DNA of 64,000 nt from Bdellovibrionales bacterium (GCA_044378055.1 JBILXY010000002.1:27122-91121); one strand, 5' to 3'. Positions 6,001 through 55,895 are shown, counted from the first letter of the stretch. Numbers and translations are program-made. The notes: a model not told the origin generated them from the letters alone.

Positions 6001-7462
6001 GCAAACAGATACAACAATTAGCGTTCCAAGTTTAATTAACACAACCACAGTAGCCGATGACGGTTTAGGCGGAATTGATGCAACCCCATTGAACAATACA
6101 TCAACTGATACAGATAATTTCCTTGGTAATCCTGATATATCTGTAACTAAAGACGACCTTTTGACTATAGCAAACCCAGGACAAATTTTACCTTACAGCA
6201 TAACTGTTACCAATTTAGGAAATGTTATTTCCACAGGTATTTCCGTGATAGACACAATTCCAGTACAAACTAACTTTGTAAGTGCTTCAAATTCAGGAAC
6301 TTACAACCCAACTGGAAGAACAGTTTCTTGGAACATACCAACTTTAACCCCAGGTCAAAGTGTAATTTTCACAACCAACATCCAAGTAAATAGTTTAATA
6401 CCGGCTGGAATTGATAATCTTTCCAACACTGTTGCTGTAATCGATGATGGAACCCATGGTGTTGATTTAGATTTAAGTAATAATAACGCCGAAGATATTG
6501 ACTTTTTGCAAGCAAGGCCAGAGTTAGAAATTATAAAAACCAGTAACCAAGCTTCAGCCTTCCCTAATGAAATATACATTTACCAACTAAATTATGCTAA
6601 CATAGGCGACCAAGGCAGCACTGGGGTTGTAATAACCGAAACTGTTCCAAATTATTCTACATTTAGCACGACAGGATCTTCCTCAGGTTGGAGCTGTAAT
6701 AACGGCGATATTGCAGGCACAACTTGTACTTATAATGTTGGAGGCTTGGCAGCTACCGAAACCGGTTTAATAACCTTCGCAGTAAGGCTTAATAGCACAG
6801 TTCCAACTGGTATTACCGAGTTAATTAACGAAGTTGAAATTGCTGACGATGGAAACAACGGAAATGAACCAATTTTGGCTAATAACTTCTCTTCACTGAC
6901 TACCCCAATTCCTAAGGTTGATTTGGAAATTATAAAAACTGTTGATAAAACCTCAGTTAGTTTACAAGAAGAACTAACCTACAACTTTATTTACAGAAAC
7001 TTAGGCCCTGATATTGCTACAAATGTTGTAATGTCAGATTTACTTCCTGCAGGCTTCCAGTTCATAAGTGCCAGCCAGAACAATTTGCCAATCACCGTTC
7101 AACTTTCAGATGGTGGAAACGGCAGAACCTTAATTCAGTACCAATTAGGTGCACTGCAACCTGGCTTTGAAGGAACACTTTCAGTTCGAACCAAAATTAT
7201 TAACCCAAGTGCTGGCCAAATTGAAAATCAGGTGACTATTCAATCACGCGAAGTAGATCCTGAAGTTTCCAACAACAGAAGTTCAGCTTTTGTTGAGGTA
7301 ATAATTCCAGGGCAAGGACCAAATTACAACAAATATGTTGTCCGTACCGGAGGAGAATTTTACTCAGGCCTAACAATGCTTATTCTAGCCCTAGTAAGCG
7401 GAGTATATCTACTAAGCTTCCAACCAAATTCCAAGAGAAAAACGGTAGAAGAAAAAGTTTAA
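2..7462 (+). CDS. Giant cell-surface/adhesin-like protein, 5'-partial (2,486 codons in the window), built from DUF11-type 'conserved repeat domain' modules. It ends in a C-terminal sorting-signal-like membrane anchor.
   Basis: The frame is open from nt 2, with no stop upstream of the TTG at 41 used by the ORF track, so the gene probably starts left of the window. A recurring signature is seen: P[DE]LxITKTDG..PGxxLxYTLxxxNxGNQxATGVVIxxTLP...DDGTNGxDPxPxNN. Composition is Thr/Asn/Val-rich. The C-terminus reads VVRTGG-EFYSG-LTMLILALVSGVYLLSF-QPNSKRK. Confidence 0.85.
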   Translation, partial: NSVRFSYGNFDDPLNRPSTADILFTLTVTDTPFADGVNLVNQVRSNVGTTNSVGQVADAIVPVILSLPGLNTTKGIVSSDVPAAVYTPVTRGPVTFNNPGGASCTLANHRFTGTINSTNRTATPITSNISGLDAGDLVTMVTTVENTGLGPKGAFNVTLNDVLPAGLTIPTGGLNLCVTNGAGTPLAFTPVNPLDTNPWVQSGIRLTDPSGIQGAISAFDATSGTNIVVISYDLAVATSASPRQVLTNQSILSNYTASAAGPNFLSSSLTDSASVTLRAGTTAKSILGTNQASTAGLNVAIGEQVQYRVVVTVPEGTSASSTIVDTLDSGLAFVSVDSITSSSTDLTTSIVGGYPTVLANRVVSSSGAGATNAGRVLTLNFGTLTNVNTNNAVAETITIDYTVVVINTAGAVRGTNLNNSVVYNWNNGSAQSLATVSATNVVVVEPTLLTSKTASVATGDANDIITYTVTVNHSGASNLAASEVSLSDIIPAGITYQTGTLAYFSGAVPTTLTEASGTITATWTTFPLATTSVFRFQAIVNTNVNPSQLIANVANTQWTSLPGIISTTQSTFNTLATERTGNVGDVGGAANNYRAAGTANFTVLGTIPLKTIVTTSESFTGNVAGVERLAVGEIVRYRMAIRVPEGITPALVLTDNLPAGLTFINDGTALYATSSNGGVVSSVGALAVGCDQVGSSNAITATCAIPGGNITGSPFNDGTDPSFVLGSITNTDNDVNEEFVIVEFNALVSNVAGNQAFNQTTSAVTNTTLANTFQSFINTSTLVGTSTALNIQVAEPLINNLAESLVVVPTDAGDPIEYNITFSNTATGNNASPAFDLTLVDQLSSNFDLLTVTVTSKPGYTNVTDNSVTPTGLASLVFDRLNPGDSITVRITGQVISAFNLGGNLQSNPSLRYTSLPGTGTASNPTGSVTPISPATSTERTGTTLPAQNDYQTFASFNIPTGTNIGVDKITPAITSYTIGEQPVFDIRVNLQEGVINSVRVRDTLPVGLDLVSYQVITTAAASSGALSQDFAGTLNPETLSVSGQNATWNFGNVNVTSDNINTNNTFIIRVTTRVNNLPSNINNFVLVNNSSVIYQNPTTLLDVTVVDPTPVSITVLEPVMSITKVFSPSSAAPNDVVNITLTATNSGGSTSFETNIQDLVNTSSHFTNVTPITTPVGFTYSTAPSGGNTMVTYTGGNIPAGQNRVFVFSAQVQSTLAGGQTINNSASITQSTTLSGVSAFERLEPVVSGNANLVIQVPDLVLTKTDAQTTVIPGQNLVYNLTVTNSGTYRADNVTITENLPANTTFSATNSLPDVWSGTGPYTINIGTLNPGQTRIVRFAVQVNASVPSGVTSLTNNASVVDDGTHGADLTPLNNQATDVDVLNATPDLTITKTDGNVTVTTGDLITYTLGYNNAGNQNATGVVISETVPANTTFNSAGSTSGWSCTNGAIAGSVCNFTIGNLSVGTSGSVNFAVTTNATIPAGVNNITNTATITDDGTNGIDPTPVNNQATEPTPITATPDIVITKTDGQTTVLPSQTLTYTLTISNVGNQGASGVVISDTLPAGMNYNSSSNAGVPSGQTITWPTISLAAGAVITRTVTVTLNSNFPSGVNSLTNNAAANDDGTNGADPTPLNNATTDVDTLNAAPDLRITKTDGGATPVPGNNLIYTLNYDNIGNQNATGVVITETVPNDTTFSTTGSSVGWSCANGAVAGTTCSFNVGNFNVGATGSITFAVLVDNPLPSGVDTITNTVSIADDGTNGVDQNLADNQATETTPVIAAPEISITKTDGKTNLDPDELNTYTLTITNNGNQDATGVVITDTLPLSLGYLTSSDSGVFASPTITWPTITLAAGQTVTRTVDVVVADSAPIPAGLETIRNEASANDDGTNGADPIPANNITEDIDTITGLPDLRITKTDNQTTATPNQLVIYNLNVQNTGNQNASGVIVTETVPAGSTFVASSSTPGWVCAGGGIAGSTCTFSLGGLNGGSSAPLDFAVQTDTTISVPSLINTTTVADDGLGGIDATPLNNTSTDTDNFLGNPDISVTKDDLLTIANPGQILPYSITVTNLGNVISTGISVIDTIPVQTNFVSASNSGTYNPTGRTVSWNIPTLTPGQSVIFTTNIQVNSLIPAGIDNLSNTVAVIDDGTHGVDLDLSNNNAEDIDFLQARPELEIIKTSNQASAFPNEIYIYQLNYANIGDQGSTGVVITETVPNYSTFSTTGSSSGWSCNNGDIAGTTCTYNVGGLAATETGLITFAVRLNSTVPTGITELINEVEIADDGNNGNEPILANNFSSLTTPIPKVDLEIIKTVDKTSVSLQEELTYNFIYRNLGPDIATNVVMSDLLPAGFQFISASQNNLPITVQLSDGGNGRTLIQYQLGALQPGFEGTLSVRTKIINPSAGQIENQVTIQSREVDPEVSNNRSSAFVEVIIPGQGPNYNKYVVRTGGEFYSGLTMLILALVSGVYLLSFQPNSKRKTVEEKV
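3775..7290 (+). repeat. In-frame tandem array of 9 DUF11-like units inside the giant gene.
   Basis: Unit starts (PDL/PDI/PEL..TKTDG) are at 3775, 4163, 4565, 4946, 5348, 5735, 6131, 6518 and 6914, giving spacings of 381-402 nt. Two unit types alternate. One carries GWSCxxGxxAGxxC; the other carries TITWPTIxLAAG. Confidence 0.85.
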
Positions 7463-7473
7463 CCCAAATGCAG

Positions 7474-33613: not shown

Positions 33614-34834
33614 ATGCTGAAGGCTTTAATTTTTGATTCTTTTTTCGATAAACATCGTGGGGTTATTGCTTTCATTCGTTTATTTAATGGGGAAATAAAG
33701 GCAGGTGACAGTATCTATTTCTTGCAATCTAGCACTAAAATTACAGTTTTAGAAGTTGGGGTTTTCAAACCAGAAATGCAACCAATTTCAAGTTTAAGCA
33801 GTGGTGAGGTTGGTTATTTGGTTACAGGTTTAAAAGAATTAGAAAAGGTTAAAGTTGGCGATACAGTCAGCAGCAAAGATGACCAGAGCTTGGCACTTCA
33901 CGGCTATAAAGAAGTAACTCCAAAAGTTTTTTCCAGTCTTTTCCCAACCAACGCCGATGATTATCCTAAACTTCGCGATGCGGTGGCTAAATTAAAGCTT
34001 AGTGATGCTTCCTTAATGTACGAAACAGAGAATATTCCTGCCCTTGGTTTTGGTTTTAGATGTGGTTTTTTAGGCCTTTTACATATGGATATTGTGCAAG
34101 AAAGATTAAGCAGGGAATTCGATTTAGATTTGGTTTTAACTACCCCTTCTGTAGAATACGAAATTGAGGAAAATAATGGCAGTAAATACACAATTCATAC
34201 CCCAGCTTTGCTTCCTGACCCCAGTAAAATTCGCCACATTTCAGAACCTTGGATTAAGATGGAAATTTTAACTCCTGATATTTACATTGGAAAAATTATC
34301 GAATTAATAACCAACAAACGCGGTACTTATACTTCAATGTCAGCTCTAGCAGCCGATCAAGTTCAAATAACTGCAGATTTACCGCTTGCCGAAATGATTG
34401 TAGATTTTTACGACGAATTAAAGTCTTGCACCAAGGGTTTTGCCACTATGTCTTACGATTTGGTTGGCTTTCAGCAAAGCGACTTGGTTAAAATTGATAT
34501 TCTGGTAAACAAGAAAATTGTTGATCCTTTATCAGTAATGTGCCACAGGGCTAATGCTGAAACCAAAGGAAGAGAAATTTGTGAAAAGCTAAAAGAACTA
34601 ATTCCAAGGCAGCAATTCGATATTTCAATTCAAGCTTCAATCGGCGCAAGAGTTATTGCAAGGGAAACAATCAAACCTTTTAGAAAAGATGTAACTGCCA
34701 AACTTTACGGCGGCGACCCTACCCGAAGAATGAAGCTGCTGGATAAACAAAAGGAAGGGAAGAAGAAAATGAAAATGGTTGGAAATGTAGAAATTCCCCA
34801 ATCAGCCTTCCTAAATGTGTTAAAGAAAAGTTAA
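33614..34834 (+). CDS. lepA: Elongation factor 4 (LepA) domains II through the C-terminal domain only. The N-terminal GTPase domain is absent, so this is a truncated gene or possible pseudogene.
   Basis: The product is collinear with E. coli LepA from about residue 190 (PLQALIIDSWFD, versus MLKALIFDSFFD here) to the C-terminus. Shared stretches include ALGFGFRCGFLGLLHM, LIPRQQFDI.IQA.IG and KQKEGKKKMK. No G1-G4 motifs appear upstream in any frame. Confidence 0.8.
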   Translation: MLKALIFDSFFDKHRGVIAFIRLFNGEIKAGDSIYFLQSSTKITVLEVGVFKPEMQPISSLSSGEVGYLVTGLKELEKVKVGDTVSSKDDQSLALHGYKEVTPKVFSSLFPTNADDYPKLRDAVAKLKLSDASLMYETENIPALGFGFRCGFLGLLHMDIVQERLSREFDLDLVLTTPSVEYEIEENNGSKYTIHTPALLPDPSKIRHISEPWIKMEILTPDIYIGKIIELITNKRGTYTSMSALAADQVQITADLPLAEMIVDFYDELKSCTKGFATMSYDLVGFQQSDLVKIDILVNKKIVDPLSVMCHRANAETKGREICEKLKELIPRQQFDISIQASIGARVIARETIKPFRKDVTAKLYGGDPTRRMKLLDKQKEGKKKMKMVGNVEIPQSAFLNVLKKS

Positions 34835-48901: not shown

Positions 48902-49582
48902 ATGGGAAAATCACTCATTTCTATAAATAATTTGAACAAATCCTTTACACTTCAAAAGGAAATTTCACCACTTGGCAGCAGAAAAATTAATGTACTTCAG
49001 AATTTTAATTTTCAATCAGACAAACCAGATATTATCGGCTTAATTGGAGAAAAAAATTCAGGCAAAACTACATTGTTTAAAATATTAATTGGTTGCATCC
49101 CACCTTGCAGTGGCGAAGTTAATGTACTTGGTTTAAAGCCAAACTTTAGAGACACAAAATACTCTACACAAATTGGTTTTGTTAGTGGTCTTAAATTTAC
49201 AGATTCCACCTTACCTATACAAGAATCCTTAACACTTTTGGCATATTTGCTGAATATTCCAGAGGTTGAATTTACAAAAAGATGCATGAAATTAATCAAC
49301 GATTTCCAATTTAACCAGCTATTAAACATCCCAATTAACCAGCTTAATAATATGGAAAAAATACAATTTGAATTAATTTGTGCCCTAATACACAACCCTA
49401 AAATAGTATTTATAGACAATATAATTGATGACTTAAATTCACAGATTTTAGAAAAGGTGAAGTCTTTAATTTTAGAATATCATAAAAAGGAAAAAACCAG
49501 CTTTATCATATTCAGCCAAAACAAAGATAAGATAGATAACATCTGCCAGAATTTGGTTCAAATAAAACAAAATGAGTTTTAA
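48902..49582 (+). CDS. ABC-type ATPase with degenerate signature motifs.
   Basis: Walker A is GEKNSGKTTLFK. The signature is degraded to NNMEKIQ and Walker B to IVFIDNIIDDL. Confidence 0.6.
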   Translation: MGKSLISINNLNKSFTLQKEISPLGSRKINVLQNFNFQSDKPDIIGLIGEKNSGKTTLFKILIGCIPPCSGEVNVLGLKPNFRDTKYSTQIGFVSGLKFTDSTLPIQESLTLLAYLLNIPEVEFTKRCMKLINDFQFNQLLNIPINQLNNMEKIQFELICALIHNPKIVFIDNIIDDLNSQILEKVKSLILEYHKKEKTSFIIFSQNKDKIDNICQNLVQIKQNEF

Positions 49583-49619
49583 ATTGACTTTTTAGCTAGT
49601 CTTGCCTTAGCTTAAGAAC

Positions 49620-50639
49620 ATGAGCAATAATTATGTGGATTACCGATCTTTTCTTATGGCCAATGTGGAGACTATGCTTCAAGCAGCCTCTACTTTAAGG
49701 CAGTCGGCTGGAATTGAAAGTGAAGATTTATTTGGAGCTGAAAGTGATGATCAAAATACCGGCAAAACAGATATTCAATGGATACAAAAAGCAGAAAATT
49801 TATCTCCATTTCAAGTTTTGCTGAAAGAAAAAGACAGTTTAGGATTATTCGTATCGGGAAATCCTTTGGATGAATACCAACATATTCTCGAATGGGTTCA
49901 GGAAACAGCCGCAAGAGACGATATACATCTGATTTTAATTACTAAAATTCGCAAAATATTTACCAAAGCCGGACAAATGATGTTCGCCCTGCAAATTACT
50001 ATGTACAATGCCGAAGTTGAAGGTGTTATCTTCCCTAAAAAAGCCATGGATCTTTCACCAAGATTAGCCGAAGGGGAACTTTTCTGGGTTCGTGGAAAAA
50101 TAAGCGTTCCAAAAAAACGAGACACCAAACAAAAACCTTTACCATCGACTCCGATTGCTGATGCAAATGAAGATTTAGATACCTCTAGCGAGGGGAATGT
50201 TGAGCAGCCTATTTCTGAAACTGTTGAGGAAGTTAAGGAATACGATGAATTACCAAAACTATTAATCGACAATTTAGTTCCATTCCAAGAAGGCGCTCTG
50301 GCCGTTTTAGCCGATGAAGACATAAGAATTTCAATTAATCGCGAGAAACTTTTTAAATCTGTAAACTGGGAAAAGCTTAAAGTAGATCCAAATTCTTTCC
50401 ATGAAAATTTCGGAGAAAGTAACAATAAAAGAGTGCCTGAAGATAAATCTGGAAAACCCAAGTTGATTAAATTAACCAAAGATGTCGGGGCAAGTGCTTT
50501 AATGGAGGTAAAACAAAATTTGAAAAAAACCCCAGAAACTGGAACTATTGAAGTTGAAGTTTGGGTTGAAAACTTGGGTGAGTTGAAAAAGGTAAAAGGC
50601 CAATTCTGGCTTCCTGAATCTATCGCCAAAAATTATTAG
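49620..50639 (+). CDS. dnaE: Stand-alone C-terminal fragment of DNA polymerase III alpha (OB-fold plus C-terminal tail). The PHP and polymerase-core regions are absent.
   Basis: YRSFLMANVETMLQAAS...DLFG...KEKDSLGLFVSGNPLDEY...IFTKAGQMMFALQITMYNAEVEGVIFPK...LFWVRGKIS is collinear with the last ~260 residues of E. coli DnaE (RAQLMASLDDAL...ETLGLYLTGHPINQY...). The upstream gene is an unrelated ABC ATPase. Confidence 0.7.
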   Translation: MSNNYVDYRSFLMANVETMLQAASTLRQSAGIESEDLFGAESDDQNTGKTDIQWIQKAENLSPFQVLLKEKDSLGLFVSGNPLDEYQHILEWVQETAARDDIHLILITKIRKIFTKAGQMMFALQITMYNAEVEGVIFPKKAMDLSPRLAEGELFWVRGKISVPKKRDTKQKPLPSTPIADANEDLDTSSEGNVEQPISETVEEVKEYDELPKLLIDNLVPFQEGALAVLADEDIRISINREKLFKSVNWEKLKVDPNSFHENFGESNNKRVPEDKSGKPKLIKLTKDVGASALMEVKQNLKKTPETGTIEVEVWVENLGELKKVKGQFWLPESIAKNY

Positions 50640-54140: not shown

Positions 54141-55895
54141 ATGAATAATTTAGACTTTTCCGCCTTCCTAAATTCCGAAATTAAAACTGATTCGGGCTTT
54201 CAATTTGGTAAAATTCCTGCTTCCAAAACTGCCATCGATTTAGTTTTTATTCACGATCCCAAAACCAAAATAACAATTTATACAGCTGTTAGTGCTAGTC
54301 AGTATCCTTTTCAATCTGTGTTAGCTTTTGCCGGAGCTAGATATTCCCGGGCGGATGGTATTATTTCAATTCTTTCCCAAATTCAAGAAAGCAATACAAA
54401 TGCCGATAAAAAACTTGGAAACATTGTAAATAATTACGGTCATTCAAGTGTGGCTGAAATGGCCAATATTCCTATTTACATTGAAGGTTTAACCAAATTT
54501 CAAAGCGAACGATTGTTTCATTTAAGTGCCATTTATTCTGGCCAAGAAAGATCAAGCCGGTACCAGAAATTAGATGGAATGCAACCAGTTAGCTTAGGCA
54601 AATATTTTAGAGAAGGCGAAACTTTAAATAATGAAAATATGGATGATGAAGGCCTATTTAGCGATGCAGGTCTATTTAACCAAACTACAGAAGACAACTT
54701 TTTGTACACAGAGTTTGAAAATATTCAGAGATTAGCCAAAGCAAATTATTTAGAATTTTTCCAAAAAACCCAAGATTTTTATATTAACCACTTTAGTATC
54801 GATACAAACAGTAAAAAGGAAATGAACACTGTTATAAGCCGAAGCTTAGATACTGCCAGGTATTTTCTACCGCTTGGTGCCATGCATACCACTTCTATGG
54901 CCTTGTTTACCAACGCCCGGGAATGGTCTAGGCTGATAGGGCAATTACAAAGTAAAACAGATTTAGAGGCTATAAATATTGCAGCCATGCTTAAACATCT
55001 TCTTGCTCCAACCGAGGAAATAGCATTGCAGCTGAATTATACCCCTGAAGCTGCGGAATTAATTCGTTATACAAGTGCCGATGAAATTACTGGAGACAAT
55101 CTTCAAACTTTGCAAAATTATTTAGAAACCTTGGAAACTTTTCAGAAATTGGTTGATTCAAACTTTAATGAAATTAAATTTATCAATGCCGAGGCAACTT
55201 TATTCGGAGATAAATTAAGCTCTGGGGGGAAGCTGATTTTGCAGAATATTCTTTGTTTATACCCCACCCTAAATATTGCAAAATTATCTGTTTGGTTGCA
55301 AAGTTTAAGCAAGAACGAAGCAGAAAAGCTTGGTACTATTTGTTTCCAGAATTTTAATCATCACAGACAAATTGGTCAGCCACTTTCAACTAATCAAGTT
55401 AGTTTTGAACTTAAAACCGATTTTGGGGCCATGATGGATTTAAACCGGCACAGAGCTTGGGGCAGATTTAACCCAATTTTTAACTATCTAAACTTTTCAA
55501 CCGACTTGATTAAAAATGGTTTTGTTTTGCCTCTTTATCTAACGGAGATTCCAGAAATGAAAGCAATAAAAGATGAGTTTGAGAAAAGAATGCTTGAATA
55601 TTATAAACAAGTGGAAATATTCTGGAATGATGCTTCGCAAGTTGAAAATTTCCCAAAACAAGCTCTGATTGATTTATTACCCCTAGCCCACAACGCCAAT
55701 ATTTTAATGCACGCTTCAGCCAAGGAAATTGATTATATGACCAAACTTAGGGTAAGGCCAGGAGGACATATAAATTACCGTTTTTTGGTTTACCAAATGC
55801 AGCAAGAAGTAATCAAAGCCGACCCATTCTTCAGACCCCAGGAACTTACAAAACCAGATTCCAACTCCAAAGCAGAATTCATGGATAGAAGTTAG
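54141..55895 (+). CDS. Long ThyX-like (flavin-dependent thymidylate synthase family) protein, apparently a tandem duplication of the ThyX fold.
   Basis: The first half has SERLFHLSAIYSGQERSSRYQ, where S.RY is kept and RHR is degraded to FHL. The second half has MDLNRHRAWGRF, where RHR is kept and no S.RY follows. LRVRPGGHINYRF lies near the C-terminus. Confidence 0.5.
   Translation: MNNLDFSAFLNSEIKTDSGFQFGKIPASKTAIDLVFIHDPKTKITIYTAVSASQYPFQSVLAFAGARYSRADGIISILSQIQESNTNADKKLGNIVNNYGHSSVAEMANIPIYIEGLTKFQSERLFHLSAIYSGQERSSRYQKLDGMQPVSLGKYFREGETLNNENMDDEGLFSDAGLFNQTTEDNFLYTEFENIQRLAKANYLEFFQKTQDFYINHFSIDTNSKKEMNTVISRSLDTARYFLPLGAMHTTSMALFTNAREWSRLIGQLQSKTDLEAINIAAMLKHLLAPTEEIALQLNYTPEAAELIRYTSADEITGDNLQTLQNYLETLETFQKLVDSNFNEIKFINAEATLFGDKLSSGGKLILQNILCLYPTLNIAKLSVWLQSLSKNEAEKLGTICFQNFNHHRQIGQPLSTNQVSFELKTDFGAMMDLNRHRAWGRFNPIFNYLNFSTDLIKNGFVLPLYLTEIPEMKAIKDEFEKRMLEYYKQVEIFWNDASQVENFPKQALIDLLPLAHNANILMHASAKEIDYMTKLRVRPGGHINYRFLVYQMQQEVIKADPFFRPQELTKPDSNSKAEFMDRS

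Follow-up and report, generated by a model that had tools for sequence, protein, structure and literature searches.

A probable intein-free fission of the gene for DNA polymerase III alpha in a family of Patescibacteria

The window analysed here is a stretch of 64,000 nucleotides, and one of its genes encodes a 339-aa protein that corresponds to the C-terminal part of DnaE, which serves DNA polymerase III (Pol III) as its alpha subunit. The rest of the subunit is encoded by an intact open reading frame elsewhere in the same genome, and the arrangement is shared across the family. We think it likely that this is a genuine and ancient gene fission, free of inteins, and that Pol III alpha is made in these bacteria as two polypeptides from unlinked genes that would assemble non-covalently. 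We call the two products the N-part, or body, and the C-part, or tail. The C-part gene and its components are as follows.

49620..50639, + strand: dnaE C-part gene, coding, with its stop codon, for the separate 339-aa 'tail' subunit of Pol III alpha
49620..49718, + strand: residues 1-33, a short variable head and the conserved helix hairpin RSFLxxNVExxLEN, corresponding to about residues 894-917 of E. coli alpha
49719..49733, + strand: residues 34-38, SEDLF, the predicted internal beta-clamp-binding motif (from the alignment)
49806..49910, + strand: residues 63-97, two helices, including the EKDSLGLFVSGNPL motif, ahead of the OB fold (from the orthologue alignment and the model)
49923..50105, + strand: residues 102-162, the OB-fold domain, through which the alpha tail contacts ssDNA and the clamp (five strands with pLDDT >90; Foldseek; a sub-threshold match to PF01336)
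50121..50237, + strand: residues 168-206, a disordered, charged linker of variable length (pLDDT <50; gappy alignment)
50256..50636, + strand: residues 213-339, a C-terminal alpha/beta domain, homologue of alpha's tau-binding domain (pLDDT ~90)

The identity of the ORF as the C-terminal part of DnaE is confirmed. The first-pass annotation of this DNA had aligned it with only the last part of DnaE and had named an HMM search as a check; in that search the DnaE model NF004226 matches solely at its positions 887-1062 of 1146 (E 3.5e-15), six further DnaE models in the NCBIfam search likewise match with their C-terminal part only, and the OB fold gives a Pfam match that stays below threshold (PF01336, tRNA_anti-codon, residues 108-167, E 0.0023, 18.3 bits against a cut-off of 27). 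Among the C-part orthologues the DnaE profile match extends further, to positions 1140-1141 of 1146. A phmmer search of the PDB with the single C-part sequence returned no match, and a family profile was needed. We therefore relied on an alignment of 23 C-part orthologues from related genomes (A1), which underlies both the PDB profile search and the AlphaFold2 model. The profile aligns to residues 953-1110 of Taq alpha and to residues 894-978 of E. coli alpha.

The model (mean pLDDT 78) runs from a helical head through an OB barrel to an alpha/beta domain at the C-terminus, and its best Foldseek match in the PDB is Mycobacterium tuberculosis DnaE1, followed by the OB folds of RPA, PriB and SSB. 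The presence of an OB fold and a C-terminal tail, claimed from the sequence at the outset, is thereby upheld; the ORF holds more than these two, as the clamp-binding motif lies on it too. All three features of a DnaE tail (clamp motif, OB fold and tau-binding domain) are thus found in the window ORF, the motif lacking its canonical Q. Residues 1-33 correspond to the last helices of the fingers/beta-binding domain and are modelled as helices at residues 5-14 and 16-33, and the clamp motif falls in a disordered stretch after this hairpin (residues 5-33). SEDLF aligns column for column with QADMF at residues 920-924 of E. coli alpha (QLDLF in the engineered chain 5fku) and with QFDLF of M. tuberculosis DnaE1, as well as with GQxDLF of fused Patescibacteria DnaE. 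Throughout the class S or T replaces the canonical Q, giving [ST][DE]DLF, with ESDSLF in the fused sister family.

In the alignment of 23 orthologues R9, N15, L20 and F38 of the C-part are invariant, and D36 and L37 nearly so. Compared with two close relatives from metagenomes, the C-part has an overall dN/dS ratio of 0.09. By region, the ratio is 0.02-0.06 in residues 1-40 (hairpin and clamp motif) and 0.05-0.06 in the C-terminal domain, and rises to 0.23-0.36 in the linker. Judged by these ratios, the C-part is under strong purifying selection, strongest in its N-terminal head. Public gene calls for the C-part and its close relatives begin at Met13 (49656) and give proteins of 325-327 aa, dropping the conserved MS[KN]NYVDYRSFL and with it the invariant Arg9. 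Because the 12 codons 5' of Met13 are kept in close relatives, with R9, S10 and L12 invariant or nearly invariant across the family, we place the true start at the ATG at 49620.

The PHP domain and the palm, thumb and fingers are absent from the ORF, as had been claimed, but the missing portion amounts to about 890 residues and not to about 800. The first-pass annotation had proposed looking for an N-terminal dnaE part elsewhere, and one exists. The host genome (G000; 1.0 Mb, a 34-contig draft, 86.65% complete) was searched with the NF004226 DnaE profile, which hits exactly two places, the window ORF, matched there over positions 887-1049, and an intact frame on contig C31:

G000:C31:24743-27544: dnaE N-part ('body'), about 940-950 aa (open frame 955 aa), with its own stop codon, matching NF004226 positions 11-889

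In Pfam it shows PHP, DNA_pol3_alpha, DNA_pol3_finger and HHH_6, and HHH_6 ends at the end of the protein. It aligns to residues 16-950 of Taq alpha, next to which the C-part profile takes up at residue 953, and it keeps the catalytic aspartates, PDIDGDF and KMDILG aligning to the Taq catalytic motifs. In other words, the features of a DnaE body (PHP, a palm with three catalytic aspartates, thumb/fingers and HhH) are present on the partner ORF and not on the window ORF, and the two parts are complementary to within 2-3 profile positions (11-889 and 887-1062). Neither reaches the NCBIfam equivalog cut-off of 1002 bits for a single DnaE polypeptide with all domains, the N-part scoring 851.7 bits and the C-part 53.8-55 bits. 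Because the N-part is the sole PF07733 match in G000, no PolC or second DnaE was found in this genome.

Three components of the replisome have peculiarities of their own. The PHP domain of the N-part (L002:1486-4305) carries substitutions at several metal-ligand positions (SLLSS, TDED, GATL), and the N-part is therefore probably without PHP proofreading. A DnaQ-like protein (G000:C33:15612-16217, 202 aa) ends directly after its exonuclease domain and has no alpha-binding tail of the epsilon type; E. coli epsilon binds alpha through just such a C-terminal extension, so the epsilon bridge may not exist here. The beta clamp scores 102 bits, below the NCBIfam cut-off of 137.65. With S or T in place of Q in the motif and a divergent clamp, binding of the clamp by the C-part is something we infer, and the pair of changes suggests, at the level of sequence, that the DnaE clamp motif and the beta clamp have diverged together.

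The two parts meet where fused DnaE proteins are continuous. Fused Patescibacteria DnaE reads ...GALDSLG(E/D)RxxLLxNxExIL...SGQxDLFG across the junction. In the split family the N-part ends with ...ALDSLG followed by 4-20 variable residues, and the C-part starts with Met and 6-38 variable residues before RSFLxxNVExxLEN...[ST][DE]DLF. The fused DnaE of the sister family has a 27-aa insertion exactly at the break point, which suggests a permissive loop that predated the break. This insert is AT-rich (30% GC) and not itself a palindromic repeat, and thus gives no support to a GC-rich palindromic repeat as the seed of the break.

The class to which these genomes belong, within the Patescibacteria, consists of a single order with two families, represented by 26 genomes in the split family and one (G025) in the sister family. 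Of the 26, which span 18 genera, 25 show the same dnaE split with identical breakpoints, and in draft assemblies the parts lie on different contigs. The exception is G003 (84% complete), the only family genome without a detected C-part. In a closed single-contig genome of 1.27 Mb from the same genus (G001) the parts lie at about 182 kb and about 961 kb, some 775 kb apart. The sister family has a fused dnaE in a 1404-aa frame, so that the comparison with relatives recommended by the first-pass annotation sets a family in which the gene is split beside one in which it is whole. More widely, we sampled 200 Patescibacteria genomes at least 80% complete. About 190 of these lie outside the class and about 165 of the latter have a match, which falls in a frame of more than 1000 aa except in a few cases at contig ends. 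No clear stand-alone C-part was found outside the family in this 200-genome sample, the few shorter frames lying at contig ends; in one genome (G162) the C-part match sits in a 194-aa frame with an internal stop.

A search with A1 of 1.84 billion cluster-representative proteins gave 81 matches at E<1e-30, of which 80 are stand-alone or shorter pieces of 125-404 aa (most of them 300-400) and one is a fused 1323-aa protein that resembles the sister family. Several short, distant proteins in the same library (e.g. P0128, P0150 and P0178) start near the same boundary; either separate fissions in other lineages or gene calls cut short could account for them. A generic DnaE peptide-pattern search of genome contigs gave, among the matches listed, only distant fused DnaE and no member of the family.

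The first-pass annotation had left open whether the truncated gene reflects gene splitting, what is left of duplication and recombination, or errors in scaffolding. A chimeric contig or a pseudogene remnant of a duplicated dnaE would be conceivable in a genome that is a 34-contig draft at 86.65% completeness. However, the architecture is identical in 25 independently assembled genomes including the closed one, which excludes scaffolding error and chimerism, and a decaying remnant fits neither the overall dN/dS of 0.09 nor the fact that no full-length copy was found in G000 to serve as its source. Artefact or decay is thus effectively refuted, with a probability that we put close to nil, and of the options first listed it is the split gene, with its N-part intact on another contig, that stands. 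Equally improbable is that a split intein or RNA trans-splicing restores a single chain from the two products. A split intein needs roughly 100 aa or more in its N half and about 35 aa in its C half, against the 4-20 and 6-38 aa of non-DnaE sequence at the two junction ends, neither of which has a conserved intein nucleophile. Pfam detects no intein or Hint domain in the N-part or the C-part, and Rfam no intron or other RNA family near either junction. The break itself, at profile positions 887-889 of 1146, is not inside the fingers. With no room for an intein, no Hint domain, no Rfam match and hardly any sequence between genes (37 nt between the C-part and the gene upstream, 2 nt between the N-part and the gene downstream), the products must stay two polypeptides. 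The cyanobacterial C-half profile NF005616 does match the C-part weakly, but in the OB region only (positions 200-345). The precedent for rejoining is the cyanobacterial pair DnaE-n/DnaE-c of Synechocystis and Nostoc, two unlinked genes joined by a split intein according to the citation in PMC3919608 (Caspi et al. 2003).

The alternative that retains some weight, although we consider it unlikely, is that the C-part is an independent accessory protein, such as a clamp- or ssDNA-binding factor or a regulator, and that the truncated N-part alone is the replicase. Residues 1-917 of E. coli alpha form a folded fragment with the polymerase domains (PMC3384344), the halves are unlinked and lie in unrelated gene neighbourhoods, and sequence comparison revealed no conserved new docking motif at the N-part tail or the C-part head beyond the features of fused DnaE, all of which such a division of labour would accommodate. 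Against it, the strongest constraint falls on the features that couple alpha to the replisome (hairpin, clamp motif and tau-binding domain), and the split is stable across the 18 genera, with a C-part in 25 of the 26 genomes searched. The N-part, moreover, has variable tails and no clamp-binding motif of its own, while clamp binding by E. coli alpha is mainly through residues 920-924 (PMC3384344). We therefore prefer a single enzyme in two pieces.

We hypothesize that the N-part and C-part of this two-piece alpha would reassemble non-covalently at the replication fork. The body would comprise PHP, palm, thumb, fingers and HhH, encoded at G000:C31, and the tail would consist of the hairpin that closes the beta-binding domain together with the clamp-binding motif, OB fold and tau-binding domain. 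Hypothetically, the tail's conserved N-terminal helix hairpin settles back on the body's HhH/little-finger domain by fragment complementation, and bridging contacts from the beta clamp (through SEDLF and the OB fold) and from tau hold the assembly together, so that the tail would act as a detachable subunit for processivity and for coupling to the clamp loader. The hairpin region, equivalent to about residues 894-917 of E. coli alpha, is the most constrained part of the C-part. E. coli alpha can be divided into two fragments that are stable on their own, residues 1-917 and 917-1160; it binds the clamp primarily through residues 920-924 and has its tau site at residues 1120-1160 (PMC3384344). 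The E. coli tail (an OB fold at 960-1071 and a tau-binding domain at 1079-1160) moves by about 35 degrees as a rigid body, tau500 contacts both the fingers and the tail, and a second contact to the clamp, an indirect one, is made through epsilon (PMC4703070).

These laboratory fragments of E. coli alpha, 1-917 (crystal structures 2HNH/2HQA) and 917-1160 (PMC3384344), have nearly the same body/tail boundary as the natural pair. They differ in that the natural break lies about 25 residues before the laboratory cut, and the helix at about residues 894-917 therefore goes with the tail. We know of no demonstration that the E. coli laboratory fragments reconstitute a working replicase in vivo.

The gene neighbourhood provides a plausible hypothesis for how the fission came about. 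Two further features of the window are relevant here.

48902..49582, + strand: ABC-type ATPase, 226 aa, with degenerate signature and Walker B motifs (ABC_tran, E 1e-12)
33614..34834, + strand: lepA C-part (domains II to the C-terminus), the second split essential gene in the window

The ABC ATPase gene ends 37 nt upstream of the ATG of the C-part, as first described. The order PMT_2, GT2, GtrA, ABC and dnaE C-part is identical in the closed genome, and a scan found no terminator-like site on the + strand between the ABC gene and the C-part. Going by this layout, the ATPase gene is probably co-transcribed with the dnaE C-part. The promoter and terminator scan yielded fewer promoter-like sites than shuffled controls and was uninformative. 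The N-part is followed, two bases downstream of its stop, by a convergent gene.

In the sister family (G025, C25:112-5752) the lepA C-part ends 140 nt upstream of the start of the fused dnaE, in the same orientation. In one genus of the split family (G002, C29:9096-11216; G019, C6:76583-78322) the dnaE C-part follows within about 15 nt of the lepA C-part, the C-terminal parts of two split genes thus adjoining each other in the same orientation; in the window and in G001 the two are 15-17 kb apart on the same strand. This synteny argues that the C-part stayed in place and that the 2.8-kb coding segment of the N-part came to lie elsewhere. The ancestor may thus have had the lepA C-part followed by a full-length dnaE, and duplication followed by complementary deletions would be the most likely and the simplest viable route of the fission.

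The first-pass annotation had also pointed to lepA as another essential gene starting with an ATG at a domain boundary, and had suspected something systematic. Both observations hold. The G-domain gene of lepA (EF4) lies elsewhere in the genome, unlinked to the C-part gene, and alaS, recJ and uvrC are split as well:

G000:C12:34791-35417, - strand: lepA G-domain gene, profile positions 1-185 (the C-part gene covers 189-594)
G000:C26:38338-39252, - strand; C20:~7135-7470, + strand; C20:9297-10004, + strand: alaS in three pieces (catalytic, tRNA-recognition and editing)
G000:C4:6084-6917, + strand; C18:5491-6597, + strand: recJ in two unlinked genes (DHH, positions 14-162; DHHA1/C-terminal, positions 197-545)
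G000:C1:47650-48645 and 48995-50125, + strand: uvrC in two adjacent genes (TIGR00194, 2-300; NF001824, 348-622)

Both families of the class share the lepA split, which takes the form of three pieces in G007, G021, G010 and G012, four genomes belonging to three genera; in 14 outgroup families lepA is a single fused gene. Pieces 2 and 3 of alaS on C20 have two unrelated genes between them. The sister family and about half of the split family carry this gene as two pieces, the rest as three, with both states occurring within one genus, and it is fused in 15 of 15 outgroup families and apparently in one family genome (G006). The recJ gene is split in G000, G001 and G007 and fused in G008, G017 and G025. 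The uvrC pieces in G000 are separated by a gap of about 350 nt with a small ORF inside. Core genes in pieces, conserved in relatives and fused in outgroups, are thus pervasive in this lineage, and the coexistence of two- and three-piece alaS in one genus, together with the mixed states of recJ, indicates that the lineage is fission-prone and the process ongoing. The screen behind this census compared G000 with the complete outgroup genome G028 and checked candidates with NCBIfam profiles. It found homologues for 234 of 514 ORFs and missed the dnaE C-part itself, so the census is a lower bound. The recG homologue of G000 (C26:10006-11265, - strand; 420 aa) is without the N-terminal wedge domain of the outgroup protein.

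Among the closest known systems is cyanobacterial DnaE, which breaks inside the fingers (at about residue 774) and whose intein halves trans-splice the products into one chain. The present alpha is like it in that Pol III alpha comes from two unlinked genes conserved across a lineage, and unlike it in that the break lies about 120 residues further downstream, at the boundary of HhH and clamp motif (about residue 893 of E. coli alpha), and has no intein. The family-B DNA polymerase of Methanothermobacter thermautotrophicus is also a two-subunit enzyme from two separate genes without an intein, but the present case concerns another polymerase family, another domain of life and another structural position of the break. 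In DnaE3 of Bacilli the domain is absent outright and PolC is the main replicase, whereas here the domain has moved to a separate gene and no PolC was found in G000. A wider parallel is offered by Nanoarchaeum equitans and its relatives, likewise organisms with reduced genomes and several informational genes in separately encoded pieces. In N. equitans alaS is split, its pieces being unlinked and broken at domain boundaries; the split polymerase of the Nanoarchaeota is of family B and has a split intein, and their set of split genes differs. Those organisms are archaea, whereas the lineage described here is a bacterial class in which fission appears to be ongoing, with two- and three-piece states in one genus. 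The passages on Nanoarchaeota in PMC3491384 and PMC3655853 describe multiple split or fragmented genes, with mention of alanyl-tRNA synthetase.

Two surveys of bacterial C-family polymerases mention no split other than the cyanobacterial one with an intein, fragments having been repaired or discarded, and the survey of the two that dates from 2026 does not mention Patescibacteria. Full-text literature searches returned no relevant description of a split dnaE or of split genes in Patescibacteria/CPR. We therefore rate an intein-free, two-gene Pol III alpha as not previously described in the literature found. In gene calling and in surveys of polymerases such halves end up discarded or mislabelled, and completeness estimates of these genomes may suffer from split genes.

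In the textbook picture of bacterial replication the alpha body and the clamp- and tau-binding tail are one chain, and a swing of the tail has been proposed as the processivity switch that recycles the lagging-strand polymerase. Here the link between body and tail has been cut, and kept cut across at least 18 genera. A split alpha would make it possible to test directly which contacts, be it helix docking, the clamp or tau, are enough to keep a replicase in one piece. That lepA, alaS, recJ and uvrC are split as well points to a leaning towards fission throughout this lineage of bacteria with reduced genomes, parallel to that of the Nanoarchaeota, and bears on how genome reduction and rearrangement reshape essential proteins. 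A more far-reaching and distinctly speculative proposal, to which we give rather less than even credence, is that this class-level lineage is in progressive, recurrent fission of dnaE, lepA, alaS, recJ, uvrC and possibly recG, as a bacterial counterpart of the Nanoarchaeota, and that the alpha tail is a free, exchangeable subunit. If true, the polymerase body would join and leave the clamp through association and dissociation of a separate protein, and not through an intramolecular swing.

A further ORF of the window, at 54141-55895 on the + strand (584 aa), contains two stretches matching Thy1 (ThyX). ThyX is usually about 220-250 aa long, and at more than twice this length the ORF may encode a duplicated or fused flavin-dependent thymidylate synthase.
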